Under the pieces are notes generated by a model. The model saw only the letters and a program-made list of their open reading frames with translations. It was not told where the DNA came from and did no database searches. Shown piece by piece: positions 7,039 through 26,549 of a stretch of DNA of 32,000 nucleotides. Every line of letters begins with the position of its first letter. Position 1 is the stretch's first letter. This DNA comes from Candidatus Anammoxibacter sp. (GTDB lineage Bacteria; Planctomycetota; Brocadiia; Brocadiales; Anammoxibacteraceae). The stretch spans positions 863-32,862 of the forward strand of contig JAIQZQ010000122.1 in assembly GCA_021777105.1 (NCBI GenBank), in the 5' to 3' direction. A program made the translations under genes and the position numbers.

Positions 7039-8738
7039 CCACCGGAGATTTAAACAGTATTGACGCCAGCATAGACTCGCTTGGGAAAAGCGCTGAAGTA
7101 AAAAGGTTTCTATTGGCAACCCTTCTGGTTTCGCGTTTCCATTTAACTTCGCGTCCCATTAGCCAGGCTAACGACTCTTTTTTTCACAGGATTTCAAATC
7201 ATTGCGACAAGCTGCTTGAAACGCTCCGCAAACCAGGTTGGCCCGAGCTATTGCCTGAGATGGAGACCGGCCTGGAAGATATGCGGTTTGTGGCTGACTG
7301 GTCTAAGGACAAAGATGCGGCAAAAACAGCCGGCCATGTTTTTAAGAAAGATTTCTATAAATATTTCCGGGGGATAAATATCAACTGGTCGCATTTAACG
7401 CCGGTTGATGATCTGACTATAAACAGGTGGCAAAATCCAAAACATATATTGATTGCGTTCGGCCCAAATATCGGCATTGGAGATGAGCTTATATTTTTTA
7501 GAGTGGCGCGGCGGCTGGCAAAGCGTTATCCGGCAAGCAAATTGGAAGTGATCTCCTTTAGCCGCACGTTATGGGATAACTGCGATTTTATCTCAAAGGT
7601 TTCATATCCGGTTGAGAATCAATTGGCCCCTTTTTCAAGGGCAAAGGAGATATTAAATGACGACAATAACAATTTCGTCATATTTGCTGAATTTGCCACA
7701 GCGCCGCTTTATAGAAATCTTGAAGTTGTTCCCGGCATAAATCGATTTATCTATTTAGACACAGGGTCGCGAGTCGCCAGAATTATAGACAAGGAGAAGT
7801 CTGAAATATTTGAATACGGTTTACCGCTTGAAACCAGGATTTATGAAACTCTTTCCAGATTTCTTGATGTTATAGGCCTGAGCGGAGAGCATGACAACAG
7901 TGGATGGGAGCCGCCGATTCGCGGCAAGATTAATGCGCCCGCAAAAGAAAACAAAAAAATATTTATCAACCCTTTCTCTTCAAAAGATTACAAATTGTTG
8001 GGAACCGGCTGGTGGGTGGATATTCTCAAATATATAAACAATGTCAATCCGGTGGAAGTAGTTATCTTTGCCGGCATAAATGACCAAAGCCGCGGTTTTG
8101 CCGGGGAAATTGCCGACAAATTGAATGAAAAGGATTGCAGGGCATCTTTATACGGCAATGATAGCGTGCCGACTATACTTGACACTATTGAAACCGCGAT
8201 AGATACAGACCTTGTTCTGGGACTGGACACGTTTACGGGCCATGTCAACATCCTTCAGTCAACGCCGTGCATAAGCGTGTTTTTTGGATCAAGATGGTAT
8301 GGCTGGTATGTGCCGGACACTAATGTGTTCAACGTAAGCATTCACGACGACGCGGAACATATAGGCAAATTAGCTAAACGTCTTTTATGGCCGGCCGGGC
8401 CGGAAATAACGGATATAGCGCGCCCGTTCTTCAATAATGCAACCCAGGCTATTTCACAAATACGAAAGGGAGACATCCCTGTTAATTTAATAGATACCTT
8501 TAGGATGGGACAAAATGTCGCAAAAAAACTCGAAGAGTTTGACAGCGACTTTTCAGAACTGTTCTCCGGCAGTCTGCAATATTACGCCCAATCCCTGGAA
8601 CAGGTTTTAAACCGCAATACGCCTTCGCCTCCGGACAACAAACAATTTACCATTTTTCTGGAAAAAGTAATAAAGGAGCTGGAAGAGTCAAATTTTTATA
8701 GCTACATCGGTTATATTGTGAAGAGAGCCGCCATGTAA
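7035..8738 (+). CDS. GT9-like (heptosyltransferase-fold) glycosyltransferase with N- and C-terminal extensions
   Basis: ILIAFGPNIGIGDELIFFRVARRLAKRYPASKLEVISF resembles the GT9 N-domain. KKIFINPFSSKDYKLLG...VVIFAG...LVLGLDTFTGHVNILQSTPCISVFFG resembles the GT9 C-domain (INPGAS..K.W...D[ST]G..HLA...P.V.LFG). I prefer the ATG at 7035 because it overlaps the upstream stop as ATGA and has GGAGAA at 7024-7029. The tracked start at 6987 would overlap the upstream gene by 52 nt. Confidence 0.55.
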   Translation: MTTGDLNSIDASIDSLGKSAEVKRFLLATLLVSRFHLTSRPISQANDSFFHRISNHCDKLLETLRKPGWPELLPEMETGLEDMRFVADWSKDKDAAKTAGHVFKKDFYKYFRGININWSHLTPVDDLTINRWQNPKHILIAFGPNIGIGDELIFFRVARRLAKRYPASKLEVISFSRTLWDNCDFISKVSYPVENQLAPFSRAKEILNDDNNNFVIFAEFATAPLYRNLEVVPGINRFIYLDTGSRVARIIDKEKSEIFEYGLPLETRIYETLSRFLDVIGLSGEHDNSGWEPPIRGKINAPAKENKKIFINPFSSKDYKLLGTGWWVDILKYINNVNPVEVVIFAGINDQSRGFAGEIADKLNEKDCRASLYGNDSVPTILDTIETAIDTDLVLGLDTFTGHVNILQSTPCISVFFGSRWYGWYVPDTNVFNVSIHDDAEHIGKLAKRLLWPAGPEITDIARPFFNNATQAISQIRKGDIPVNLIDTFRMGQNVAKKLEEFDSDFSELFSGSLQYYAQSLEQVLNRNTPSPPDNKQFTIFLEKVIKELEESNFYSYIGYIVKRAAM

Positions 8739-8823
8739 TTGTAAATCCGTAAACACTAAATTTCAAAAAGGAACCACAGGCACGCTGATTTCTCAGATTT
8801 TCTAATCCGTTTGATTTTAACTT

Positions 8824-10374
8824 TTAATCTTCAACGCGAAGTTCAACAAAGCCGTAACGCAACATAAACAGAACTAAACGGTCGCAGTCCGGAACCGAGA
8901 CTTTTATTTTCCCACGCAGGCCGGCTAAAGATATGCCGTTGCCTGAGCACGACTCTATTGCCAAACCTATTTTTGGAAAATCATCGCCCAAAACCAGCCG
9001 CGCGGCAACAGATTCAATAGAGCCGTCTACATAGCGGTTCGTTGATCGCAAAACACTGTTTTCATTCAAATAATGCGTAGCCAATGCGTCAACCAGAGAT
9101 TTAAGCGGCGGTATTGCGCCTGTAATTGTAGGGGCCTTGCCTTTGCCTGAGTTAATTAGACGACGCCAAAGCGCAACCAGCTTCTTTGCGGTATGCTCCC
9201 ACATAAACGCTTTGACATGATGGCGTCCCGCGTTTTTAAGAGTTTCAATTTCAGGGCCGCCGTTCACAAACCGGTTTATTGTTTCGACTAAAACATTTAA
9301 CAATGCAGCGCCGGCCTCGGTAAGGTCGTTATGGCTAACGCCTTCCCATTCAATATTTCTTGCCAACTCATGGCTCGCGACTGTAGGCACAAGCCATTTT
9401 TGGTACTCTAACGGCATTACATCCCTATATCCGTTCCAATCGGTTGCGACTACAGGCAAACCGGCGGCAAGGGCTTCCAGCAGAGCGACGCCAAAAGATT
9501 CCTGCGGATTTGTGGGTATGGAGACAAATACGTCCGCAGCCGCTAAAATATGTTTTTTTTCACTGTCGTAAAAGTGTTCTTTTATTAAAACACGCTCTGC
9601 TATTCCCAATTGAACGGCAAATTTATTAATAAACTCTATATACTCCTTATCAGCCGCAGATGATCCGCCGGCAAGCAAAAGGTATAAATCTTTTTCACAG
9701 CAACAGGTTTCTCGCAGTTTGGCAAAAGCAAATACTAGTTGAACATGATCCTGTTTCTGATGAGTTATACGATTCAAACTAAGAATAAGCGCAGCCTTAT
9801 CCGGCAATCCCAATAAAAGCCTTCCCGACGCCCTGTCTCCCTGAATAAAATCCTCTTTGGCGACCCCATGAGGTATTATTTCAACCGGAGGCAAACTATA
9901 GTCTAAATTCCTTGACAAGCCCGCCAAAAACATGAATCTTTTAGCAGTTGACGCTGACGGAGACACAAAACAGGCAGGATGCAACCTATTCCATGATCGC
10001 CAGCACAAAATATTAATCATCCTGCAAAACGGAGTTAATTCCAGGCTATGCAAATGCACAACCGTCGGCAAACTATTAACAACGCCTTCTTTGTAAAGCA
10101 TTTCATCAGAGCCGTGTATCATTAGCCCGTCAATGTTTTTAAACAAATCCGCGCCGTTAATACTATCGTTAAGCGCAAACTCAAGAGCGCCTTTTTGCGC
10201 CAAATCGGAGTAATAATCTAAAAGCCGATTTTTAAGCTCCAAATCTCCATGAACTATTATACGCATTGCGACATCGCCGGTCTCAATCAGCGAACGTATA
10301 AGATTGCGTTCAACAACAGCCTGACCGGCATTTGCAAATATGGAACTATAACAAACCCCTAAAAGATGTATCAC
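8824..10374 (-). CDS. GT4-family (GT-B fold) glycosyltransferase with ~100-aa C-terminal extension
   Basis: ESFGVALLEALAAGLPVVATDWNGYRDV matches the E-x-FG-x4-LEA-x-A-x-G-x-PVV motif of retaining GT4 enzymes. Confidence 0.8.
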   Translation of the reverse strand: MIHLLGVCYSSIFANAGQAVVERNLIRSLIETGDVAMRIIVHGDLELKNRLLDYYSDLAQKGALEFALNDSINGADLFKNIDGLMIHGSDEMLYKEGVVNSLPTVVHLHSLELTPFCRMINILCWRSWNRLHPACFVSPSASTAKRFMFLAGLSRNLDYSLPPVEIIPHGVAKEDFIQGDRASGRLLLGLPDKAALILSLNRITHQKQDHVQLVFAFAKLRETCCCEKDLYLLLAGGSSAADKEYIEFINKFAVQLGIAERVLIKEHFYDSEKKHILAAADVFVSIPTNPQESFGVALLEALAAGLPVVATDWNGYRDVMPLEYQKWLVPTVASHELARNIEWEGVSHNDLTEAGAALLNVLVETINRFVNGGPEIETLKNAGRHHVKAFMWEHTAKKLVALWRRLINSGKGKAPTITGAIPPLKSLVDALATHYLNENSVLRSTNRYVDGSIESVAARLVLGDDFPKIGLAIESCSGNGISLAGLRGKIKVSVPDCDRLVLFMLRYGFVELRVED

Positions 10375-10454
10375 GGCCTTCCTTTACAGTGTTAAATTTC
10401 TATAACTTTAGCTCACTTTAGTCTGTTGCTTGTTGACGTTTTTTAACGAATTCC

Positions 10455-11492
10455 TTACGCCCACTCAAACAACATAGAGCCATACGTAAAACCCGCGCCG
10501 AATGTGTGGCACAGTATCAGATCGCCTTTCCGTATCTTCCCTGATTCATAATGTTCACAGATGCCCGTGGGGATGCCGGCGCTGCCCACGCTTCCATATT
10601 TATTAAGAGTGTATGGTATTTTTTCAAACGGATATCCAATGTGTTCGCAAAACTCCTTCACCATAGTCTTCGTTGTTTGGTGCGGCACAAAAAGGTCTAT
10701 ATCTTTTTGTGAAATATTATAAGCCCCGGCCCGGGCCAGAACATCATCCATACTCTTTTTAGATTCAAACGCGAGTTTTCTGGCGGCTTTGCCGTTTATT
10801 TTAGAAAACGGCCGCTTTATCTTTGCCATATCTTTGCCCGCAAAATACCCCTCCATTGAATTAAACTCTTCAGTAAAGACGGTTGGAAGTTGAATAGCGT
10901 TTGACGGGATTGTTCCGCAACTAAAGATCGGCGCGCATAATTTATGTTTTGACGAGCCGTTTTCATCCGCCCGCTCGACAATAGCCGCCCCCGCGGCGTC
11001 GCCGAATATAATATTAGAGCGATCATGAAAATTCATAATTCTGGAATGAGCTTCAGTTCCAACAATAAGGGCTTTTTTTGCCTGATTGGTTTGAATCATA
11101 GATACGGCGGTCCGCATTCCAAATATCCACCCTGAACAGCTTGCCATAATATCAAACGATGTGGCGTTTGAAGCATTTAGCTTTCCCTGGATCTTAGAGG
11201 CAGCGCTTGGTAAAATGTCATCCGGAGAGCTTGTTGCGCATATTATCAGATCCAAACTTTCTGGTTTATTGCTGCCTGTCCGGTCTAAAGCAATTAAAGA
11301 GGCCTTTACCGCCATGTCCGTGATTGACTGCCCGGCCTCTATCCTGCTGCGATCACAAACGCCTGAAGTTTCAATGATCCATTCAAGCCAATCGTCATCA
11401 ACGCTTAACAACTTTTTCCAGTCCTTATTGGAAATTCGGCGTTCGGGTATATATGAACCTATGCCGGTTATTTTTACATCGCTCATATTCAT
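10455..11492 (-). CDS. 3-oxoacyl-ACP synthase III-like (FabH/KAS III family)
   Basis: ITGIGSYIPERRISN at the N-terminus. The Cys-His-Asn triad contexts are present: MASCSGWIFG, VPHQTTK, LNKYGSVGSAGIP. GAGFTYGS lies at the C-terminus. It sits co-directionally 80 nt upstream of the GT4 gene. Confidence 0.85.
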   Translation of the reverse strand: MNMSDVKITGIGSYIPERRISNKDWKKLLSVDDDWLEWIIETSGVCDRSRIEAGQSITDMAVKASLIALDRTGSNKPESLDLIICATSSPDDILPSAASKIQGKLNASNATSFDIMASCSGWIFGMRTAVSMIQTNQAKKALIVGTEAHSRIMNFHDRSNIIFGDAAGAAIVERADENGSSKHKLCAPIFSCGTIPSNAIQLPTVFTEEFNSMEGYFAGKDMAKIKRPFSKINGKAARKLAFESKKSMDDVLARAGAYNISQKDIDLFVPHQTTKTMVKEFCEHIGYPFEKIPYTLNKYGSVGSAGIPTGICEHYESGKIRKGDLILCHTFGAGFTYGSMLFEWA

Positions 11493-16176: not shown

Positions 16177-17784
16177 ATGATAAATTTAAAAGAGAACGTT
16201 TTTAAAAACAGAAGCCCAAAAGTCGCGCTTGTTGAGCATCCGCGCCCTCGCGACGCAAAGCGGGAGGAGGACGTTGTCAACTCTCCCCTTTCGGCTTGCC
16301 TTATGACTGGATATGCGGCGTCTGTTCTTAAAGAAAAGGGCATTGAGGTTGAAATAGTTGACGCCAACCTTTTGGGCCGGTCAATAGATGAAACTATAGA
16401 GCATCTTTCCGGCGCCGGCTACGCGTTGATTTGCGTTCGGCTTGTTTATTTGTGGGAGCGGACGGAAGACATATTAAATATGATAGGTGAGTTGCGCAAA
16501 CGCGGCGTTAAGGCGCATATAAATCTTTACGGTCATTATGCGACTTTTGCGCGGGATGAGCTGCTTGACCGTTTTCCATTTGTTGATTCCGTCGCGGTTG
16601 GCGAGCCTGAGTTCACATTGCTTGAGTTGGCGGAAAGGTTGGTCGAAGCTGAACAGGAACAAGGCATTTCTAATATCAGTGGACTGGCAGTGAGAGACAA
16701 GCAGGTTGCGTTTAAACCTAGGGAGTTGATAAGCAACCTAGATATGTTGCCGTTTCCTGATCGCCCAAATATTGAAATTGAGAGGGCAAAAGGGACTACA
16801 ACCTATATCCTCGGCAGCAGGGGGTGCTACAATAATTGCGGGTTTTGTTATTTAAATCCTTTTTATGGGGACGAGGCGGACTGGCGGGGAAGAAGCGCGC
16901 AAAATATTTTTGATGAGATAAAGCAGTTATACGGCCAGCGGGAATGCCGCAGTTTCTACTTTGCTGACGCCAACTTCTTCGGCAAGGGCAGGGCCGGCAA
17001 GGAGCGCGTAAAAGAGCTGGCCAACCTTATTATCGAGAGCGGTATAAAAATTATCTTCGGGTTGGAGTGCCGGGCAAACGATGTGGACGCTGAAATTATA
17101 GGGTTGCTTAAAAAGGCCGGGCTTGACAACATTTTCATCGGCATTGAAAGCGGCGATCAGGCCATCCTGAACTCATTCGGCAAAAACACGTCGGTTGAAG
17201 TAAACAAGAAGGCTATAAATATAATAAGGAAGTCAGGGGCAAGTCTTAATATGGGCTTTATCATGTTTGGCCGCAGCGCGAATATTGAGGGGATTAAACA
17301 GAATTTTAATTTCTTGCAGGATATGGGGCTTCTTGTTGAACCGTATACTACGGCTCACCTTTTGCACCACAGGCAATCTATTTTCCAGGGCACTCCTGAT
17401 TATGAAAAATTTATGGCGGAGTCTCAGGCCATTGATAATGGCGGAAGTTTGCCGTTTGGAAATTACGAGGCGTTGTTGGAACTGAATGATAAACGAACTG
17501 CGGTTATGGCGGATGTGGCGTTTAGTTTTTGCAGGAAAGCTTTATCAATTATTTCAGGCAACGGCAAAAACAACGAAGATGATCTATGCGGAAGCAAAAT
17601 AACCGGCGAATCTAAAGACGGCTATTTGGCTAAACTTAACGGACTGCTTATTGACCTTTTTAGCCGAACGTTGGATGGGATTGAAAAAGGCGATATTGAT
17701 CTTGACGATAATGGGGTAAATAGATTAAAAGAGGCGCATATAAATGAAATAGAGAGTTTTGATAAAAAGAATCGCTCAATTTAG
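16177..17784 (+). CDS. B12-binding-domain (class B) radical SAM enzyme, 535 aa
   Basis: The N-terminal region is Rossmann-like and cobalamin-domain-like (KVALVEHPRP...EVEIVDAN...ALICVRL...INLYGHYATF...VAVGEPE). The CxxxCxxC cluster motif is GCYNNCGFC: Cys217/221/224, codons 16825-16848. The only plausible start is the ATG at 16177. Confidence 0.9.
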   Translation: MINLKENVFKNRSPKVALVEHPRPRDAKREEDVVNSPLSACLMTGYAASVLKEKGIEVEIVDANLLGRSIDETIEHLSGAGYALICVRLVYLWERTEDILNMIGELRKRGVKAHINLYGHYATFARDELLDRFPFVDSVAVGEPEFTLLELAERLVEAEQEQGISNISGLAVRDKQVAFKPRELISNLDMLPFPDRPNIEIERAKGTTTYILGSRGCYNNCGFCYLNPFYGDEADWRGRSAQNIFDEIKQLYGQRECRSFYFADANFFGKGRAGKERVKELANLIIESGIKIIFGLECRANDVDAEIIGLLKKAGLDNIFIGIESGDQAILNSFGKNTSVEVNKKAINIIRKSGASLNMGFIMFGRSANIEGIKQNFNFLQDMGLLVEPYTTAHLLHHRQSIFQGTPDYEKFMAESQAIDNGGSLPFGNYEALLELNDKRTAVMADVAFSFCRKALSIISGNGKNNEDDLCGSKITGESKDGYLAKLNGLLIDLFSRTLDGIEKGDIDLDDNGVNRLKEAHINEIESFDKKNRSI

Positions 17785-17811
17785 TTTAATTATTTAAGGT
17801 TATATAAATTT

Positions 17812-18810
17812 ATGAACACAGCTCAATCACAATTTGATTATATTACGGAAATAAGCCTTGGGTATTGGAAATCGAGGACGTTAATAACGGCTGTGGAGTT
17901 GGGCGTGTTTACATGTTTGGCCAAAGGGAGCTGCAACGCGGCTGCGATTGCAAAGGCGGCAAAAAGCGACACAAGGGCAATGGAGATGTTGCTGAACGCG
18001 TTGGTTGGGCTGGAATTTCTCGGCAAAAAAGGGAATTTGTTTAAAAACAGGCCGATTGCAGATCAATATCTGGTTAAAGGCCGGCCTTTGTATCAGGGAA
18101 ACCGCATTCTTTTATCCAGAAACTTATGGGACAACTGGTCAAACCTGGACAAAGCTGTAAAAAGCGGCAAGCCGGTGGCTTTTAAAAACGCCGGCAAGAA
18201 ACCTGACGCAAAAAAGCGCAAAGTGTTTATAACGGCCATGCGCGATTTTGCGGTTTTTAAAAGCAAGGCAGTCGCCGCAAACCTAAACCTGGCCGGCCGT
18301 AACAAGCTTTTAGATTTGGGAGGAGGGCCGGGTTCGTATTCTATAGAATTTGTCAAAGCAAATCCTGAGCTTAATGCTGTAATATTTGATCTAAACGGAG
18401 TTGTGAAGCTGGCAAAAGGTTTTGTTAAGGAAGCGGGTTTAAGCAAAAGGATTAAGACTATTGCCGGAGAGTGTGTTAATGACGATTACGGAGACAATTT
18501 ATACGACGTTGTTTTTGTGTCAAATTTATTGCACATGTATGATGAGAAGATAAATCTGAATATTATAAATAAATGCTATAACGCGCTTGAAAAAGGGGGC
18601 ATGTTCATCGCCAGTGATTTTTTTATGGACACGTCAATGACAAAATCGCAATTTGCCGCCCTTTTTAGCCTGAACATGCTGACCGGCACGCATGGCGGGA
18701 GCAATTACAGCGTTAATGAAATAAAGGGGTGGTTGTCAAAGGCGGGTTTTAATAAATTAAAATCTGTTAAATATGATATGGACTCTTATTTGGTTATTGG
18801 CCATAAATAA
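17812..18810 (+). CDS. class I SAM-dependent O-methyltransferase, family-2 type (N-terminal dimerisation/wHTH domain; CrtF/ASMT-like)
   Basis: SLGYWKSRTLITAVELGVFTCLA forms the dimerisation domain. LLDLGGGPGSYSIEF is motif I. DVVFVSNLLHMYDE and GGMFIASDF are motifs II and III. The start is 27 nt after the radical SAM stop. Confidence 0.85.
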   Translation: MNTAQSQFDYITEISLGYWKSRTLITAVELGVFTCLAKGSCNAAAIAKAAKSDTRAMEMLLNALVGLEFLGKKGNLFKNRPIADQYLVKGRPLYQGNRILLSRNLWDNWSNLDKAVKSGKPVAFKNAGKKPDAKKRKVFITAMRDFAVFKSKAVAANLNLAGRNKLLDLGGGPGSYSIEFVKANPELNAVIFDLNGVVKLAKGFVKEAGLSKRIKTIAGECVNDDYGDNLYDVVFVSNLLHMYDEKINLNIINKCYNALEKGGMFIASDFFMDTSMTKSQFAALFSLNMLTGTHGGSNYSVNEIKGWLSKAGFNKLKSVKYDMDSYLVIGHK

Positions 18811-18902
18811 TGCGTTTTTGAAAAATAAGCAACATAAACAGACCGTAAAAATTTATCCTAAATGGCTATGTCGTTTAAATATAGAGGGGGTTAATATTAT
18901 TA

Positions 18903-18931
18903 TTGACAACTCAATTGCTCTCTGATATCAT
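18903..18931 (+). promoter_or_regulatory. sigma70-type promoter candidate upstream of the ACP gene
   Basis: TTGACA (18903-18908), an exactly 17-nt spacer, then TATCAT (18926-18931). A hairpin follows in the leader: GGCGTAA (18958-18964) with TTACGCC (18975-18981), then TTTT. Confidence 0.5.
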
Positions 18932-19045
18932 TATCCGATTAATGTTTTGCCTGCGTCGGCGTAACACATTGTTTTTACGCCTTTTAGCGGTAAAATTTAA
19001 AGGTTTAAAATAATAATTTAGGCACTTTTAAATGGAGGGGTTAAG

Positions 19046-19300
19046 TTGTATTCAGACGACACGGAAAGAGATGTCACAGCTATAGTCGCGGAAGTGACCG
19101 AGATGGACGAAGCCGAAATTTGGGAAAAAAAAGAAGCTGATTTTTTCAAAGATTTGGAAATAGATTCATTGTTGGCTTTGGAAATTTTGGCATTAATTGA
19201 AAAAAAGTTCAAGATTCAAGTACCTGAAGAGAAACTTGTAGATATTACATCACTTCAGCAGACAATTAATATGACTAAAGCAGTGTTAGAGGCAAAATAA
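19046..19300 (+). CDS. acyl carrier protein
   Basis: FKDLEIDSLLALEILALIE contains the D-S-L phosphopantetheine attachment motif (Ser41, codon 19166-19168). The start is TTG, with SD GGAGGGG 5 nt upstream. Confidence 0.85.
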   Translation: MYSDDTERDVTAIVAEVTEMDEAEIWEKKEADFFKDLEIDSLLALEILALIEKKFKIQVPEEKLVDITSLQQTINMTKAVLEAK

Positions 19301-19365
19301 TAATCAGGATAATTAAATTTTTATGCGCATGTATAAAACGGTAAACATTATAAAGGGTGTGCCAA

Positions 19366-19818
19366 ATGAGTTATGATGAGGTAAAACGCCTCTTGCCTCA
19401 ACGGAATCCTTTTATATTTGTTGATAAAATTGTTGAGTTTGAAGAGAATAAGCGGATTGTTTGTATAAAAAATGTATCAGGCAATGAGCCTTATTTTGTG
19501 GGCCATTTTCCTGACTTTGAGATAATGCCGGGCGTTTTGATGTTGGAGGCAATGGCCCAGGCTTCAATAATTTTGTTCAAGAAGAGTTCTACCGGCATGG
19601 ATGATGGGGACGGCAAGGTGTTCTTGCTGGCTTCTGTTAAAAACGCGCGTTTTTTAAAACCGGTTTTTCCCGGCGATCAATTGGCTCTGGAAATTAATGT
19701 TGAAAAAATAGTGGCAAGCGGAGCCATTGTTCAGGGGGTGGCCAAAGTAGGAGACAAAACCGTCGCAAAAGCGGCTCTAACATTCGGCACGGCTGAAAAA
19801 AGCGCGTTATCACAATAA
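19366..19818 (+). CDS. fabZ: 3-hydroxyacyl-ACP dehydratase, FabZ family
   Basis: LLPQRNPFIFVDKIVEFEENKRIVCIKNVSGNEPYFVGHFPDFEIMPGVLMLEAMAQ is a near-textbook FabZ hot-dog signature and includes the catalytic His and Glu contexts. I prefer ATG 19366 (MSYDE...) over the tracked GTG 19357. Confidence 0.9.
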   Translation: MSYDEVKRLLPQRNPFIFVDKIVEFEENKRIVCIKNVSGNEPYFVGHFPDFEIMPGVLMLEAMAQASIILFKKSSTGMDDGDGKVFLLASVKNARFLKPVFPGDQLALEINVEKIVASGAIVQGVAKVGDKTVAKAALTFGTAEKSALSQ

Positions 19819-19854
19819 AATCATATCAAAACACAAATTTAATAATATAGAATG

Positions 19855-19877
19855 CCCCGATAATTCGGGGTTTCTTT
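19855..19877 (+). terminator. terminator-like hairpin between fabZ and the KS gene
   Basis: CCCCGA (19855-19860), loop TAAT, TCGGGG (19865-19870), then TTTCTTT. A TATAAT hexamer lies downstream at 19910-19915. Confidence 0.45.
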
Positions 19878-19931
19878 ATTATTACGGCAACGTTAAACTT
19901 CATAGTTTTTATAATCCCGTTCTATTTTATC

Positions 19932-21152
19932 ATGAAAAAACGAATAGTAATTACAGGCATGGGGGTGGTTTCTCCTGTTGGATGCGGAAAAGACGTCTTT
20001 TGGGACGCTATTACTTCCGGCAAGTCAGGAATTGACGAGGTGAAAGGTTTTGACACTTCAGCGTTCAGGGTGCATCGGGGTTGCGAAGTTAAAGACTTCA
20101 ATTATAAAGATTACATACCAAACGGAACCGGCAGAGAAATCGGCAAGGGTTCTGAGTTTGCCGTTGCGGCGGCCAAACTTGCGCTGGATGATTCAGGCCT
20201 AAATATTGAAGAACTTGATAAAGAGAGGATCGGCGTTTCAGTCGGCACTACGGCGGGCGAAATTCAAGTATTGGAAAAGATCGACGATACCAGATTCAAA
20301 AATGGCGAGGATGCCGTTGATCCTGAACAATTCTTAAAACATCCTTGCAACAGCATACCTGCAAACATAGCTATAGAGTTTGGATTTAAAGGCCCGAACA
20401 CAATAATTCCCACTGCGTGCGCCGCCGGTAATTACGCGGTAGGTTACGCGTGCGATTTGATATCAATGGGCCGGGCGGATTATATGGTCGCGGGTGGAGC
20501 CGATCCATTTTCAAGAGTGGCGTATGTTGGATTTGGCAGGTTAAACGCCATCGCGCCTGAGATTTGTCAACCATTTGCGAAAGACCGCAAAGGGATGATG
20601 ATAGGCGAGGGAGCCGGCATAGTAGTTCTGGAGTCGCTTGAAAATGCGCGAAAAAGAAACGCAGAAATTTACGCCGAGATTATCGGGAGCGGACTTAGCT
20701 GCGACGGTTATCACATTACAATTCCTCATCCGGAAGGCATCGGGGTTATCGCGGCAATGAAAAAGGCTATAAAAGACGCCAATATAAAACCGGAAGATAT
20801 TCAATATATAAGTGCTCATGGAACCGGGACTATGGCAAACGACAAAGCCGAAACCGTATCAGTTAAAAAGGTTTTTGGCGAACACGCAAATAAATTAATG
20901 ATAAGCTCCATTAAGTCTATGATCGGGCACACCATGGGAGCGGCAAGCGCAATAGAGACGGTGGCTTGCGCAATGGCTGTAAAAAACAATATTGTTCCAC
21001 CGACCACAAATTATTCCGCAAAAGATCCCGAGTGCGATCTTGATGTTGTTCCTAATGAAAAACGGGAAACGGAAGTAAACATTGTCCTCAACAACGCCTA
21101 TGCGTTTGGAGGCAATAATAGTTGTTTGGTTATTAAAAAATTTGCCGAGTAA
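19932..21152 (+). CDS. beta-ketoacyl-ACP synthase, FabF/KAS II-like (active KS subunit)
   Basis: The Cys-His-His triad contexts are intact: PTACAAG (Cys163, codon 20418-20420), SAHGTGT and GHTMGAAS. Confidence 0.9.
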
Positions 21153-21155
21153 AAA

Positions 21156-22388
21156 ATGGAAAAACAAATAGTTGTCACAGGCATAGGAATTATTTCCGCT
21201 TTAGGCGATGATAAAACTCAATTTTGGGGTAATCTGACAAAAGGAGTCTCCGGCATAAAACCCGTTACCCTTTTCGATGTCTCATCGTTTAAAAATAAAT
21301 TAGCGGGCGAAATAACGGAATTTGATCCTAAAGCGTATTTAGGCAAAAAGGGTATCAGACATATAGACCGCACGTCATTGTTAATTTCGTCAGCCGCAAA
21401 ATTGGCTTTGCAGGACGCGAATGTGAACGACGACACATACGGCTGCGAAGAAAAAGGCATAGTTTTCGGATCAACATACGGCAGCATCGACAGCATAAGC
21501 GAATTTGATATGGAAGCCCTTAAAGAGGGCCCGAATTATGTAAACCCAATGGCTTTTCCAAACACGGTCTTAAACGCCCCGGCAAGCAGAGCGTCTATTT
21601 TTTGCAACGCTACAGGGTTAAACTCTACAATTTCAAACGGCGTTACCAGCTCTATCGACTCAATAATTTACGCCTCGGATTTCCTTAAAATGAGCAGAGT
21701 AAAGGCTGTTTTAACCGGAGGCGTCTTTGGTTTGACCTATGGTATATACCTTGGAACTTCTCATGCAAAGCTTCTCTCCGGCAGCGATGGGAATCCAAAT
21801 GAAATCTCAGCTCCGTTTGATAAAAGACGAAACGGTTTTGTGTTGGGCGAGGGAGCCGCTGTTATGTTGCTTGAAAATATTGATGACGCAAAAAAAAGAA
21901 ACGCGACTATTTACGGCGAAATAAAAGGGTACGGAACGTCTTTTAGCCCTAACAAGGTAATCGGCAAAGAGAGCAATGTTGATGACGGCAAACGCGCTAT
22001 TACGATTGCGTTAAATGAGGCGTCGTTGACTGCGGATAATATATCGTTTATATCGGCAAACGCCAACTCCAGCATTGATGGAGATATAAGGGAGTCGCGG
22101 ATTATTAAAGAAGTGTTTGGAGATCAAACTAAAAATACGCCTGTAACCGCCGTTAAATCTATGATCGGCGAGTGCCTTGACGCATCAGGAGCAATGCAGA
22201 CAATTTCAAGCTTATTGGCGATAAATAACGGGGCTGTACCTCCAACAATAAATTGTGAAGAGCTCGATGAAAAGTGCGGTTTGGAGTGCGTTCCTGACGA
22301 ATGCAGGGAAATGGCTGTTGAAAACGTGTTGATTAACTCTTTTTCTGATATTGGGAACGCGTCTTCGTTAATTGTTTCTAAATTTTAA
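21156..22388 (+). CDS. KS-like partner lacking the catalytic triad (chain-length-factor / KS-beta-like)
   Basis: It aligns to the preceding KS without gaps across the active-site segment. Cys163 becomes Val163 (GTT, 21642-21644). SAHGTGT becomes [15 protein letters not shown] becomes GECLDASG. The start is 3 nt after the KS stop. Confidence 0.85.
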   Translation: MEKQIVVTGIGIISALGDDKTQFWGNLTKGVSGIKPVTLFDVSSFKNKLAGEITEFDPKAYLGKKGIRHIDRTSLLISSAAKLALQDANVNDDTYGCEEKGIVFGSTYGSIDSISEFDMEALKEGPNYVNPMAFPNTVLNAPASRASIFCNATGLNSTISNGVTSSIDSIIYASDFLKMSRVKAVLTGGVFGLTYGIYLGTSHAKLLSGSDGNPNEISAPFDKRRNGFVLGEGAAVMLLENIDDAKKRNATIYGEIKGYGTSFSPNKVIGKESNVDDGKRAITIALNEASLTADNISFISANANSSIDGDIRESRIIKEVFGDQTKNTPVTAVKSMIGECLDASGAMQTISSLLAINNGAVPPTINCEELDEKCGLECVPDECREMAVENVLINSFSDIGNASSLIVSKF

Positions 22389-22448
22389 TGATAAAAGTTT
22401 AGCGGAAATCAAAACGCTGCACATTCCGCTTGGTTTTAATATTTTGCA

Positions 22449-23900
22449 ATGTATGAGTTTGGTGTAAAAGGTTTTTACGATAAGTCCAGGTTAAAGTCGG
22501 AATATGACGCGATAGTTATAGGGGCCGGCATCGGCGGATTGGTTTGCGGCGCTTTTTTAGCAAAAGCAGGCAAAAAAGTATTGATTGCCGAGCAGCATAG
22601 CATGCCGGGTGGTTATTGCACTTCTTTTAAAAGAAAAGGATTTATCTTTGACTCTGCGGTGCATCACATTGGCGGATGCGGAAGGTGGAGCATTGTCGGA
22701 CGATGTTTTAGCGAGCTTGACATTGACCTTGATTTCCACCATCTTGACCCGATGGACAACATTGTTTTTCCGTCAAGAAGCGTTGAAATCCCCGCGGATA
22801 TCGATGAATATTCAGAAAACTTGCAAAATCAATTTCCTGCTGAAAAGGAAAATATAGCAAAGTTTTTTAAAGAGTTCACCAAACTCTATTGGTCTATTAT
22901 AAACAATAAGGCTCACAGCGCCTTAATAGAGAAATACAACGGAGTTACGTTTAGCGAAACGCTTGACAACTTTTTTGCGGATCCACAATTAAAATCTATT
23001 CTTGGCGGACAATGGGGTTATTTAGGGTCGCTGCCGAACGAAGTGTCAACTATAGGCATGTGCCAGATGTTGATTAACTATTTAAAAGACGGCGCGTATT
23101 TCCCGGTAGGCGGATCGCAAAAATTTGCAAACGCCATACTAAAGCGGTTTATTGACCTTGGAGGTGAAATTATTCTATCATCCATGGTTGAGAAAATATT
23201 GTTGGACGGCGATAAAGCCGCCGGCATTGCGTTAAAAGACGGTCAAGAAGTTTTAGCCGGCACGGTTATTTCAAACGTGGACGCGAAACAAACTTTTCAT
23301 GAGCTTTTACCTACAAAGGTAAACGGCAATTTTGCCGCAAAGCTAAACGGCATGCAGGAAAGCGCGTCTTTCTTTCTGCTTTATCTTGGAGTTGACTCTG
23401 AGATTGATTTGAGCAAACTAAAACGCGGTTTCTATTATCCGTCGGACGGACCGTTTACAAAAGACAACTGGAAATATATTTCAGTGCCCACTAAAGTCGA
23501 CCAGACTTTGGCGCCTGACAATAAACAGATAATTTTTAGCCTGGTAGCGCTGGACAAAGAGTATGATGATATTACGGATTGGGATGATTTAAAGAAAAAG
23601 CTTACCGAGTCCACAATTGACTATCTGTCTGAATTTGCTCCGGGTTTGCGGGATCATATAGAGGTTGTTGACGCGGCTACCCCAAAGACTCTTAAACGGT
23701 ACACTCTTAATTCAAAAGGCGCGCCATACGGCTGGGCCGTAACTAACGACCAGACAGGAGCAAACAGGCTACAGCCGACAACTCCGTTTAAAGGCCTGTA
23801 CCTCGCCGGGCACTGGACAAATCCGGGCCCAGGCATCGCCTCGGTGGTGTCATCAGGCTGGCGCGTGGCAAACATAATTTTAAAAGAAGAAAAACAGTAA
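22449..23900 (+). CDS. FAD-dependent desaturase/oxidoreductase, phytoene-desaturase (CrtI/CrtD) family
   Basis: YDAIVIGAGIGGLVCGAFLAKAGKKVLIAEQHSMPGGYCTSF is the N-terminal dinucleotide-binding motif of this family. The C-terminal GLYLAGHWTNPGPGI motif is also present. Confidence 0.85.
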   Translation: MYEFGVKGFYDKSRLKSEYDAIVIGAGIGGLVCGAFLAKAGKKVLIAEQHSMPGGYCTSFKRKGFIFDSAVHHIGGCGRWSIVGRCFSELDIDLDFHHLDPMDNIVFPSRSVEIPADIDEYSENLQNQFPAEKENIAKFFKEFTKLYWSIINNKAHSALIEKYNGVTFSETLDNFFADPQLKSILGGQWGYLGSLPNEVSTIGMCQMLINYLKDGAYFPVGGSQKFANAILKRFIDLGGEIILSSMVEKILLDGDKAAGIALKDGQEVLAGTVISNVDAKQTFHELLPTKVNGNFAAKLNGMQESASFFLLYLGVDSEIDLSKLKRGFYYPSDGPFTKDNWKYISVPTKVDQTLAPDNKQIIFSLVALDKEYDDITDWDDLKKKLTESTIDYLSEFAPGLRDHIEVVDAATPKTLKRYTLNSKGAPYGWAVTNDQTGANRLQPTTPFKGLYLAGHWTNPGPGIASVVSSGWRVANIILKEEKQ

Positions 23901-23981
23901 CCGGATTTTAGCGCTTCATATATACAAGCGCCAACATCTGGTTACTAACATTAATAATATTTTTTTAGGGAGAAAAATAAT

Positions 23982-25448
23982 ATGAGAAAGATGATGTTGG
24001 TAAACCCGCATCCACCGGGACGACATGGAGAGGAAAGCATTACGGTTATTGTGCAGATGCCTTTAAATTTGGCTTATATTGCCGCATTGACACCCGGAGA
24101 CTGGGAATTTGATGTTATTGATGAAAACATGGAACTTGCCCTTGACGAGACAGAGACTAATACAACATTTGACGGCTTTGACCTTGTTTGTATAACAGCA
24201 TTAACACACCAGGCTGCAAGGGCTTATAAAATTGCAGAGGCGTGCAAGAAAAAAGGCATGACTACGATAATGGGCGGAATACACGCGTCTGTGGTTACGG
24301 ACGAAGCCTTGCAATATCTTGACTGTGTTGTTACCGGCGAGGCTGAAAATATTTGGGCAACTGTTATTAAAGATTTTGAAGAGGGTAATTTAAAGAAACT
24401 TTATGATGGCGGGCTCCCAGACCTTAGCGTGTTAAAAAAAGTTTACCCTAACAGGGAGTTGATGAGGAAAAAATATGATTATAAATTCTCTTCAATTATT
24501 ACCACAAAAGGTTGCCCTAACAGATGCGAATTTTGCAGTGTGCCGACTTTCCAGGGCGGAAAATTCAGGGAAAGGCCTTATGAAGATGTTCTCGACGAGA
24601 TGGAAGCGACTGATTATAAAGGGTTAATGTTTGCCGAAGACAACTTCTATGGTCACGGAAAACGCTCTGCTGAAAGAGCGCGAAATTTGTTTCAGGGCAT
24701 GGTTGATAGAAAAGTCAATAAAGATTGGCTCGGATTTACCGCATTGAATATTAATAGCGACGCCGAAGTTCTTAGATTAATGGCCGAAAGCGGCAACTTT
24801 GGAATGCTTATCGGAGTTGAATCTACAAACGAAGAAGTGCTGGCAAAGATGAATAAACGCGTCAACCTTAAACTCGGCGTTGACAGCTATTACGAAAGCG
24901 TTGACCGTATTCACCAGGCCGGGCTTGTTGTTTGGGGCTCAATGGTATTTGGAGCCGACGGCGACGGCAAGGACTCATTTGCCAGAATGGCTGATTTTAT
25001 TCTGGATAACAATATTGATATTTTAACTTACGGTATAAGCACCCCTTTCCCAAAAACGCCTTTATTTGAACGCCTTGATGGAGAAAAACGAATTTTCCGT
25101 AAAAACTTCCCTAATGACTGGAAGTATTATGACACAGCTAACGTGATTAGCAGATTTGTTAGCCTTAGCCTTGAAGAGTTTATTGAAGGCATGCAACTTG
25201 TATATGACAAAGTTTACGCGGGAACTATGTTGCGTGAAAGATTCAGAAATACAATTAAAAGGACTCATAACCCTAGAAATGCAATGTTTGCTTTCAGAGT
25301 AGGCTCTGACTGGAAACAGGTGTTTGAGCAGGTGCTTGATGGTTTAAGAGAACTTTATGATTCAGGCGATTACTATAAAGACTGGTATACAAGTAAATCC
25401 ATGGTTGTTGAAAAACAGGGTTTAGAGACTGTAGCCACAGCTTATTAA
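23982..25448 (+). CDS. B12-binding-domain (class B) radical SAM enzyme, 488 aa (second, divergent paralogue)
   Basis: The N-terminal domain is cobalamin-binding-like (LVCITALTHQAARAYKIAEACKKKGMTTIMGGIHAS...VVTGEAE). The CxxxCxxC motif is GCPNRCEFC: Cys178/182/185, codons 24513-24536. SD GGGAG is upstream. Confidence 0.9.
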   Translation: MRKMMLVNPHPPGRHGEESITVIVQMPLNLAYIAALTPGDWEFDVIDENMELALDETETNTTFDGFDLVCITALTHQAARAYKIAEACKKKGMTTIMGGIHASVVTDEALQYLDCVVTGEAENIWATVIKDFEEGNLKKLYDGGLPDLSVLKKVYPNRELMRKKYDYKFSSIITTKGCPNRCEFCSVPTFQGGKFRERPYEDVLDEMEATDYKGLMFAEDNFYGHGKRSAERARNLFQGMVDRKVNKDWLGFTALNINSDAEVLRLMAESGNFGMLIGVESTNEEVLAKMNKRVNLKLGVDSYYESVDRIHQAGLVVWGSMVFGADGDGKDSFARMADFILDNNIDILTYGISTPFPKTPLFERLDGEKRIFRKNFPNDWKYYDTANVISRFVSLSLEEFIEGMQLVYDKVYAGTMLRERFRNTIKRTHNPRNAMFAFRVGSDWKQVFEQVLDGLRELYDSGDYYKDWYTSKSMVVEKQGLETVATAY

Positions 25449-25484
25449 TAATCTTGTCACATTAAGTTTCGTTTCGCTATTTTT

Positions 25485-25523
25485 AAAAGCTCTGATGTTC
25501 AAAAGGACATCAGAGCTTTTTTT
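25485..25523. terminator. bidirectional intrinsic terminator between the convergent radical SAM and GGDEF-like genes
   Basis: AGCTCTGATGT (25488-25498) pairs with ACATCAGAGCT (25507-25517), an 11-bp perfect stem. An A-run lies 5' and a T6-7 run lies 3'. Confidence 0.8.
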
Positions 25524-25562
25524 ATGCATAAAATTACACTGAACAGCTTGCCTGCTTAAGCC

Positions 25563-26549
25563 CTAATTATTTTTTGTGTTTTGCAATCTTCTACGCTTGG
25601 TCTTTCGTTTTTCCATATCAATTGACATCACCCTTCGTCTCCTGTCTCTGGATACACCTCTTCGTTCCCCATTCAACCACTGTTTTACAAGCCTCTCAAA
25701 TATATTGTATTCAGAGTTTGTGAGTATAGTTCTTCCATAAGTTTTATTCTTTACATGCAATAAAAAGGAGTTAAATCGCTCCTGTAGGTCAACAAACGCC
25801 TTTTTCTCTTTTTGCGTAATCTTGCCGTTTTCTCCCATATTTATGAGTAGCGACTCCACAGCCAATAAAGTCTCAACTGTTTGAGGTATTAAAGAAGCGG
25901 AAGTGTTTCTTGAAGGCGCTATTTCAATTCTGTCACCCCCTTTCTTCTGAGCCTTGTCAAGAAGCTCTCCCGCCATCCTGTAAAGATTTGCTTTATCCCT
26001 TGTATCGTCAGGATAAATTGCGGCCCCAATGCTGATCGTCAAAAGAGGCGGTTTATCCTCTTCGCGAATATTGCATTTTTCCCGTAATAAAAAATCCAGC
26101 TCCTCTTCAGTAAGAACCGCCCTATTATCCTCAGACATTTGATTAATCTCCCATATATCGGCAAGCTCTTTACAAAGTCTTTTACCAACTTTAACAGCGC
26201 CGGCTTTTGAAGTCATGGGAAGAAGGAGCGCTAATCCATGCTTTTTATGCCGCCCTAAATAATCAAGGTTTCTTATAAAACAGTATATTTCATCAGCAAC
26301 CAAGTTAAAAAGATTATCGGCAACTAACTGACCATTAGCTTCATAAGGTATTTTGTCCGGCCTTATAAGACATAATGCAAAAGGGTACTGATAACGATCA
26401 GCCCGCGCTATTTCATCTTGCAACTTACCGTGAAAAAGAGACGGCGACAATAAACTACGTTTCGTAGACGAGTCAAATTGATTCTCAATCTCTTTTGAAA
26501 GCGACAACAACTCTTTTGCCAACATATGCAGCTTCTTATCAGTAATCAT
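25563..26549 (-). CDS. degenerate GGDEF-domain protein (GGDEF replaced by KKHGL, I-site RxxD retained) with C-terminal extension and poly-basic tail
   Basis: The GGDEF fold landmarks are RADRYQYPFALCLIRPD, RNLDYLGRHKKHGLALLLP, TISIGAAIYP and LLDKAQKKGGDRI. The active-site motif is lost, while RNLD sits exactly 5 residues before it. The tail reads ERRGVSRDRRRRVMSIDMEKRKTKRRRLQ. Confidence 0.7.
   Translation of the reverse strand: MITDKKLHMLAKELLSLSKEIENQFDSSTKRSLLSPSLFHGKLQDEIARADRYQYPFALCLIRPDKIPYEANGQLVADNLFNLVADEIYCFIRNLDYLGRHKKHGLALLLPMTSKAGAVKVGKRLCKELADIWEINQMSEDNRAVLTEEELDFLLREKCNIREEDKPPLLTISIGAAIYPDDTRDKANLYRMAGELLDKAQKKGGDRIEIAPSRNTSASLIPQTVETLLAVESLLINMGENGKITQKEKKAFVDLQERFNSFLLHVKNKTYGRTILTNSEYNIFERLVKQWLNGERRGVSRDRRRRVMSIDMEKRKTKRRRLQNTKNN

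Follow-up and report, generated by a model that had tools for sequence, protein, structure and literature searches.

A FabF-fold protein lacking the Cys-His-His triad in a divergent anammox lineage is very probably an orthologue of amxFabFmut

INTRODUCTION

The biosynthesis of ladderane lipids is unsolved. The main candidate locus is Cluster I of anammox bacteria (kuste3603-3608), whose link to ladderane lipids is so far putative everywhere. Rattray et al. 2009 (PMC2649909, Table 2) listed Val163/Asn298/Lys328/Glu333 as the active-site residues of Kuste3606 and Phe163/Asn298/Glu333 as those of Kuste2805. These active sites were judged incompatible with normal FabF chemistry, and the dead protein was proposed to feed a ladderane moiety of separate origin into fatty-acid synthesis. 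Javidpour et al. 2016 termed kuste3606 a "non-canonical FabF".

The K. stuttgartiensis and B. fulgida proteins are the subject of a preprint of May 2026 (Granatino et al., bioRxiv 10.64898/2026.05.19.726425). In that work, amxFabF2 and amxFabFmut co-purify and form an obligate heterodimer (amxFabFhet) that resembles a ketosynthase/chain-length factor (KS/CLF) pair, with heterodimerisation attributed to electrostatic asymmetry. Decarboxylation of malonyl-amxACP and formation of acetoacetyl-amxACP require both subunits, neither of which suffices alone, and isolated amxFabFmut shows zero activity and zero crosslinking. Crystal structures at 2.6 and 2.1 Å reveal a single tunnel that runs past a catalytic triad. 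Its lining includes Phe135, Thr138 and Val139 of the dead subunit, and the V139G and F135G/V139G variants of that subunit shift the preference among C6, C8 and C16 probes, as read out in a non-physiological crosslinking reaction; elongation past acetoacetyl-ACP was not observed in vitro. The carrier protein amxACP touches both subunits. The dead subunit also contains a second tunnel, which is occupied by PEG and has no access to the catalytic triad, and ACP is predicted by modelling to have no preference for its entrance. Most species have Val in the slot of the catalytic cysteine, whereas Scalindua brodae has Thr. The closest structural neighbour of the live subunit is Iga11, and that of the dead subunit is the FabF of B. 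subtilis.

The division of labour in type II polyketide synthases (PKS) is comparable. In the KS-alpha/KS-beta pairs of actinorhodin (PDB 1TQY) and ishigamide (Iga11/Iga12; PDB 6KXD-6KXF), a live KS is joined by a triad-less homologue that shapes the acyl tunnel and sets chain length. Canonical FabF/KAS II enzymes, in contrast, are homodimers (B. subtilis, 4LS5/4LS6; E. coli, 2GFW).

Here we analyse a stretch of 32,000 nucleotides (the window; contig JAIQZQ010000122.1, positions 863 to 32,862) from Candidatus Anammoxibacter sp., in which a live KS gene is followed by a KS-like gene that has lost all three catalytic residues. The observation is confirmed and its interpretation is supported, and the finding itself is already known: the dead triad was published by Rattray et al. 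2009, and crystal structures and assays of the heterodimer are given in the 2026 preprint.

RESULTS

An intact FabF-fold gene without a catalytic triad

The gene at 21156..22388 (forward strand, as are all genes of the cluster described below) is open for 410 codons with zero internal stops, and its product matches the Pfam ketoacyl-synt N (1.8e-30) and ketoacyl-synt C (7.2e-22) domains. Because of these domains and the abundant orthologues at 60-72% identity, we regard it as a real gene and not a chance open reading frame. The gene before it, at 19932..21152, encodes a live ketosynthase of 406 aa with Cys163/His296/His333, Lys328 and the gate residue Phe392. BLASTP aligns the two products at 33% identity (E 2e-73), without gaps across residues 121-180. 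The 36-residue active-site segments that the initial annotation had placed side by side without gaps are residues 154-189 in both proteins and correspond column for column.

The nucleophile Cys163 of the live KS (TGC, 20418-20420) faces Val163 of its partner (GTT, 21642..21644). This substitution was called correctly in the initial annotation: the pairwise alignment agrees with a HMMER alignment to PDB 4LS6, in which Val163 stands opposite the TACATG cysteine of Bacillus subtilis FabF. Both catalytic histidines are replaced as well, as had also been claimed. His296 corresponds to Asn302 (AAC, 22059..22061) and His333 to Glu339 (GAG, 22170..22172), which is followed directly by Cys340. The catalytic lysine is kept in both proteins (K328 in the KS, K334 in the partner), whereas the gate residue of the KS, Phe392, is replaced by Asp398.

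The product of 21156..22388 shares its thiolase fold and length with canonical FabF/KAS II, to which HMMER matches it at E 1e-74 to 1e-64, but it lacks Cys-His-His and the gate Phe and scores below the NCBIfam cut-offs (334.6 bits against 493.75 for fabF TIGR03150; 319.3 bits against 387 for NF005589). A reading of the gene as an active FabF was rejected on account of the missing triad and these sub-threshold scores. The claim that the partner is not an active KS thus holds, and it agrees with the inactivity of the isolated orthologue (Granatino et al. 2026).

The two genes match amxFabF2 and amxFabFmut of Cluster I

PDB entries 9S5H and 9S5I hold Brocadia fulgida amxFabF2/amxFabFmut. The dead partner matches chain C of 9S5H at E 1.3e-167 (561 bits), gapless over residues 4-410, as against 3e-60 for chain B and 2.4e-74 for the best canonical FabF. 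The live KS matches chain B at E 2.8e-196. Each window protein is therefore far closer to its own chain of 9S5H/9S5I than to the other chain. A full-text literature search for "9S5H" gave zero matches, and we tied the entry to the preprint of Granatino et al. because the organism, the subunit composition and the ACP complex agree. In a tree, the partner groups with the amxFabFmut proteins of Kuenenia and other Brocadiales (support 96/97), and its replacement set Val163/Asn302/Glu339 plus Lys334 is the Kuste3606 set of Rattray et al. 2009, Table 2.

The neighbourhood is that of Cluster I. The genes before the KS pair encode orthologues of amxACP, the carrier protein for which both subunits provide a docking surface (19046..19300; PDB 7QV0_D at E 2.3e-35, 7AUF_A, and 9S5I_E at E 3.7e-33), and of amxFabZ (19357..19818; PDB 8AYD at E 1.8e-63 and 7QV0_A at E 4.1e-59). 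The pair is followed by the phytoene-desaturase homologue of the cluster (PDH; 22449..23900; Pfam Amino_oxidase, NCBIfam crtI_fam at 2.3e-50; syntenic in L010-L015) and by its B12-binding radical SAM protein (rSAM; 23982..25448; Pfam Radical_SAM and B12-binding; 70-74% identical and syntenic in L010-L014). The six-gene order ACP-FabZ-F2-Fmut-PDH-rSAM is also found in Ca. Kuenenia hertensis and in four other Brocadiales loci (together L010-L014).

From these matches, 21156..22388 is very probably the orthologue of amxFabFmut (KustE3606/Broful02170), the non-catalytic half of the obligate heterodimer amxFabFhet. The known pairs (KustE3606/3605, Broful02170/02171 and Scabro02228/02229) and the window pair have in common the fold, the Phe/Thr/Val of the tunnel, the six-gene neighbourhood and an anammox host with hydrazine synthase, and the Val/Asn/Glu set is shared with Kuste3606. 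The window protein differs in being only ~60-72% identical to any database sequence searched, and its identity to the characterised Brocadia protein is moderate (Brocadia orthologues are 63-64% identical), which counts against the assignment. Its host falls into a different family of the order, with a genome of 7.65 Mb. The cluster also differs in its upstream flank, where a pair of genes for a B12 radical SAM protein and an O-methyltransferase is joined to it.

This upstream pair occupies 16177-18810, immediately before the ACP gene, and its methyltransferase belongs to family 2. The same arrangement occurs in the only other genome of the family (G302, L042). The O-methyltransferase itself is present in 60 of the 61 genomes of the order. 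It is missing from the flanks of L010-L014, and in closed genomes of another family (G132, G169, G032) it lies megabases from Cluster I.

Spacing, order and transcription of the pair

The KS stop codon (TAA, 21150-21152) is separated from the ATG of its partner at 21156 by 3 nt (21153-21155). This gap had been taken to fit a stoichiometric heterodimer. The gap is real, but it is peculiar to this genome: by our own count, five related anammox loci have spacings of ~46-105 nt. Since spacing varies among loci, a need for tight translational coupling is not conserved. A scan of 18700-25700 found no terminator-like site between the two KS genes, consistent with co-transcription, and 19 promoter-like sites, where 14.3 ± 4.4 would be expected.

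The live KS gene precedes the dead KS gene here, as it does in each of the five related loci. The preprint places amxFabFmut "just upstream" of amxFabF2, which is the opposite order.

The nucleophile slot is free and the tunnel segment is constrained

We aligned 49 orthologues that are 60-72% identical to the window protein (63-64% for those of Brocadia). The former nucleophile position holds V in 30, T in 11, I in four and E in four of them, and ranks 87th of 410 positions by entropy, among the more variable ones. This variability argues against chemistry at the old nucleophile position. The first-His position is N in 22, C in 26 and S in one, whereas the second-His position is Glu in 49/49, with Cys340 and Lys334 also invariant. 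Three further loci carry Glu/Asn/Asp at the three catalytic slots. The most conserved 20-residue stretch of the protein is 130-149 (21543..21602), with a mean entropy of 0.14, compared with 0.83 overall. Within it lie Phe134, Thr137 and Val138, which correspond to the tunnel-lining B. fulgida Phe135/Thr138/Val139 and are all invariant in 49/49. A free nucleophile slot combined with a conserved tunnel stretch is the pattern that a chain-length-factor role predicts.

The same alignment bears on whether the protein might be a chain-length factor of the classical type, which primes through malonyl-ACP decarboxylation in its own pocket. Classical aromatic-PKS chain-length factors carry Gln at the nucleophile slot. 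Here the slot is Val, Gln occurs in none of the 49 orthologues, and both histidines required for decarboxylation are missing. The cluster neighbours (ACP, FabZ, a CrtI-like oxidoreductase, B12 radical SAM proteins and an O-methyltransferase) form a FAS-like setting with no cyclase or aromatase and no aromatic-PKS context, in which respect, as in the missing Gln, the dead subunit differs from a type II PKS chain-length factor. The gene does adjoin a KS gene, and the heterodimer of the orthologues does decarboxylate malonyl-ACP; even so, priming in the pocket of the dead subunit is exceedingly improbable. A priming factor of the Gln type is excluded by the residues themselves, and the initial annotation was right on this point, since alignment with FabF and with anammox KS pairs puts neither Cys nor Gln at the nucleophile slot of any amxFabFmut orthologue (n=49). 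Its further statement that Val gives no decarboxylase-type chemistry stands only in part: Gln is indeed absent, but the heterodimer of the orthologues still decarboxylates malonyl-amxACP. Such priming presumably takes place at Cys163/His296/His333 of the live subunit.

Loss of all three catalytic residues could also mark a KS duplicate in decay. The dead member does diverge faster than the live one, with 60-65% identity to the loci L010-L014 as against 70-74% for amxFabF2 to the same five. Yet its 410-codon frame is intact, the mean column identity among orthologues is 76% with many invariant columns, and the live subunit of the orthologous pair is inactive without the dead one (Granatino et al. 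2026). In a sample of 301 Planctomycetota genomes searched at E <= 1e-120, amxFabFmut orthologues occurred in 14 of the 15 genomes that share the order of the host and in 0/285 other Planctomycetota. There is next to no likelihood of a decaying, functionless copy, and a pseudogene was excluded by the strong conservation.

The remaining constraint on the dead pocket, in which Glu339, Cys340 and Lys334 are invariant, is not an obvious need of a purely passive role. One explanation would be that the dead subunit has a catalytic or ligand-binding function of its own, unrelated to KS chemistry, that uses these residual residues and its own tunnel. The second, PEG-filled tunnel of the crystal structure and the recruitment of a ladderane moiety proposed by Rattray et al. 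2009 would suit such a function, as would the Glu found at the second-His slot of most dead relatives (see below). Against it, the would-be nucleophile varies among V, T, I and E, the isolated orthologue shows neither activity nor crosslinking, the second tunnel lacks access to the triad and has a modelled entrance without ACP preference, and the conserved Glu and Lys could merely stabilise the fold. We consider a separate function of this kind very unlikely. The structural role that the initial annotation proposed, in which the partner would shape the substrate tunnel of a heterodimer with the adjacent KS, is in line with the co-purification, the tunnel and the mutant effects of the orthologues (Granatino et al. 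2026) and with our own family survey.

Dead partners in the wider family

We scanned 1.84 billion cluster representatives with HMMER and took the nearest 150 (26-48% identity). Among these, 85 of 98 single-domain proteins are without Cys-His-His. The nucleophile slot of this dead set holds F (24), E (11), C, M, Y and I (6 each), S (5), Q (only 4 of the 85, which again does not favour a priming factor of the classical type) and others, while the second-His slot is Glu in 73/85. All 34 two-domain proteins among the nearest 150 (~740-880 aa) join an N-terminal Cys-His-His KS to a C-terminal dead KS, in the order that the genes have in the window; they include P0124, P0128-P0130, P0133, P0138 and 28 others. 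These natural fusions are independent evidence that both folds act as one unit. Judged by these relatives, the dead-partner design appears to be common well beyond the anammox orthologues, and often fused.

Further live/dead pairs in the same genome

A second pair lies on contig 63 (L040, forward strand). Its live KS (8698-9903) has Cys-His-His, and its dead KS (10156-11373) carries Phe/Asn/Glu; at 38% identity, no paralogue is closer to the 21156..22388 product. The pair adjoins genes for an AMP-dependent ligase and a B12 radical SAM protein, which matches kuste2802-2805. Like the window pair, this Kuste2804/Kuste2805-type locus (Rattray 2009; Javidpour 2016) sets a live KS beside a dead one with Asn and Glu at the His slots and a B12 radical SAM gene adjacent; it differs in having Phe and not Val at the nucleophile slot, a 252-nt gap and no ACP, FabZ or PDH gene in the locus. 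In a maximum-likelihood tree the two live KS are sisters (100/100), as are the two dead KS (100/99). From these pairings, live and dead gene were duplicated together, at a time when the triad of the partner was already gone. The contig 63 pair probably forms a second heterodimer, which might resemble that of Cluster I but be set to another chain length.

A third live/dead pair is encoded by two adjacent genes on the minus strand of contig 47 (L005), in a locus with four KS-like genes. It combines Cys-His-His with Ala/Asp/His, and its members are each other's sisters (94/91), which suggests that this dead partner had a separate, independent origin.

The host is an anammox bacterium

The assembly comprises 7.65 Mb in 142 contigs (93.6% complete, 5.5% contamination), as against 1.4-5.9 Mb for the other sampled genomes of the order, and its family has one other sampled member. 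Several open reading frames of 2000-3700 aa with KS domains lie on contigs 34, 37, 100, 105 and 123. We considered whether a genome of this kind might carry Cluster I in a host from outside the anammox bacteria. Contig 18 encodes an 814-aa orthologue of HzsA (PDB 5C2V_A, E 0, 1199 bits), the GC content is 40.6%, and the tetranucleotide correlation is >= 0.94 for all contigs >= 10 kb. A non-anammox origin of this PKS-rich genome was ruled out because HzsA is present and the contigs are compositionally uniform. The host is an anammox bacterium, and its production of ladderanes is itself putative. Given the uniform composition, the large size of this anammox genome is probably genuine, as is its wealth of polyketide-type genes.

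DISCUSSION

From orthology, synteny and residue conservation we infer that the two window proteins form a heterodimer in which the dead subunit has a role in chain length. The dead subunit would keep the FabF thiolase fold and, having neither a nucleophile nor the His pair, would provide no condensing site of its own. It would dimerise with the product of the upstream amxFabF2 gene, the carrier of the sole Cys-His-His site, where all chemistry would take place, and its helix-loop-helix (residues ~110-140, including Phe134, Thr137 and Val138) would close over the acyl tunnel of the partner and form part of the wall. This wall would set the chain-length preference, as a chain-length factor does in type II PKS, and roughly half of the surface on which amxACP docks would also come from the dead subunit. 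The complex is predicted to decarboxylate malonyl-amxACP and to yield acetoacetyl-amxACP. The 110-140 motifs of both window proteins are, by eye, net negative, and the electrostatic asymmetry described in the preprint is not readable from sequence.

A more active part for the dead subunit can be imagined. In addition to forming a tunnel wall, its Lys334/Glu339/Cys340 cluster and defunct tunnel might bind a lipid intermediate or dock the PDH or the B12 radical SAM protein, so that the heterodimer would serve as a hand-off platform in ladderane assembly. We regard this as an unlikely, speculative extension of the chain-length role.

That a dead KS turns FabF into a KS/CLF-like heterodimer that prefers short chains has already been put forward and tested by others. 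The window adds another orthologue to this family, from a divergent anammox lineage with a large genome. In the family as a whole, the former nucleophile slot is unconstrained while constraint peaks in the segment that lines the tunnel, a distinction that could guide mutagenesis. Finally, the tree shows that the live/dead pair has been duplicated as a unit within anammox genomes.
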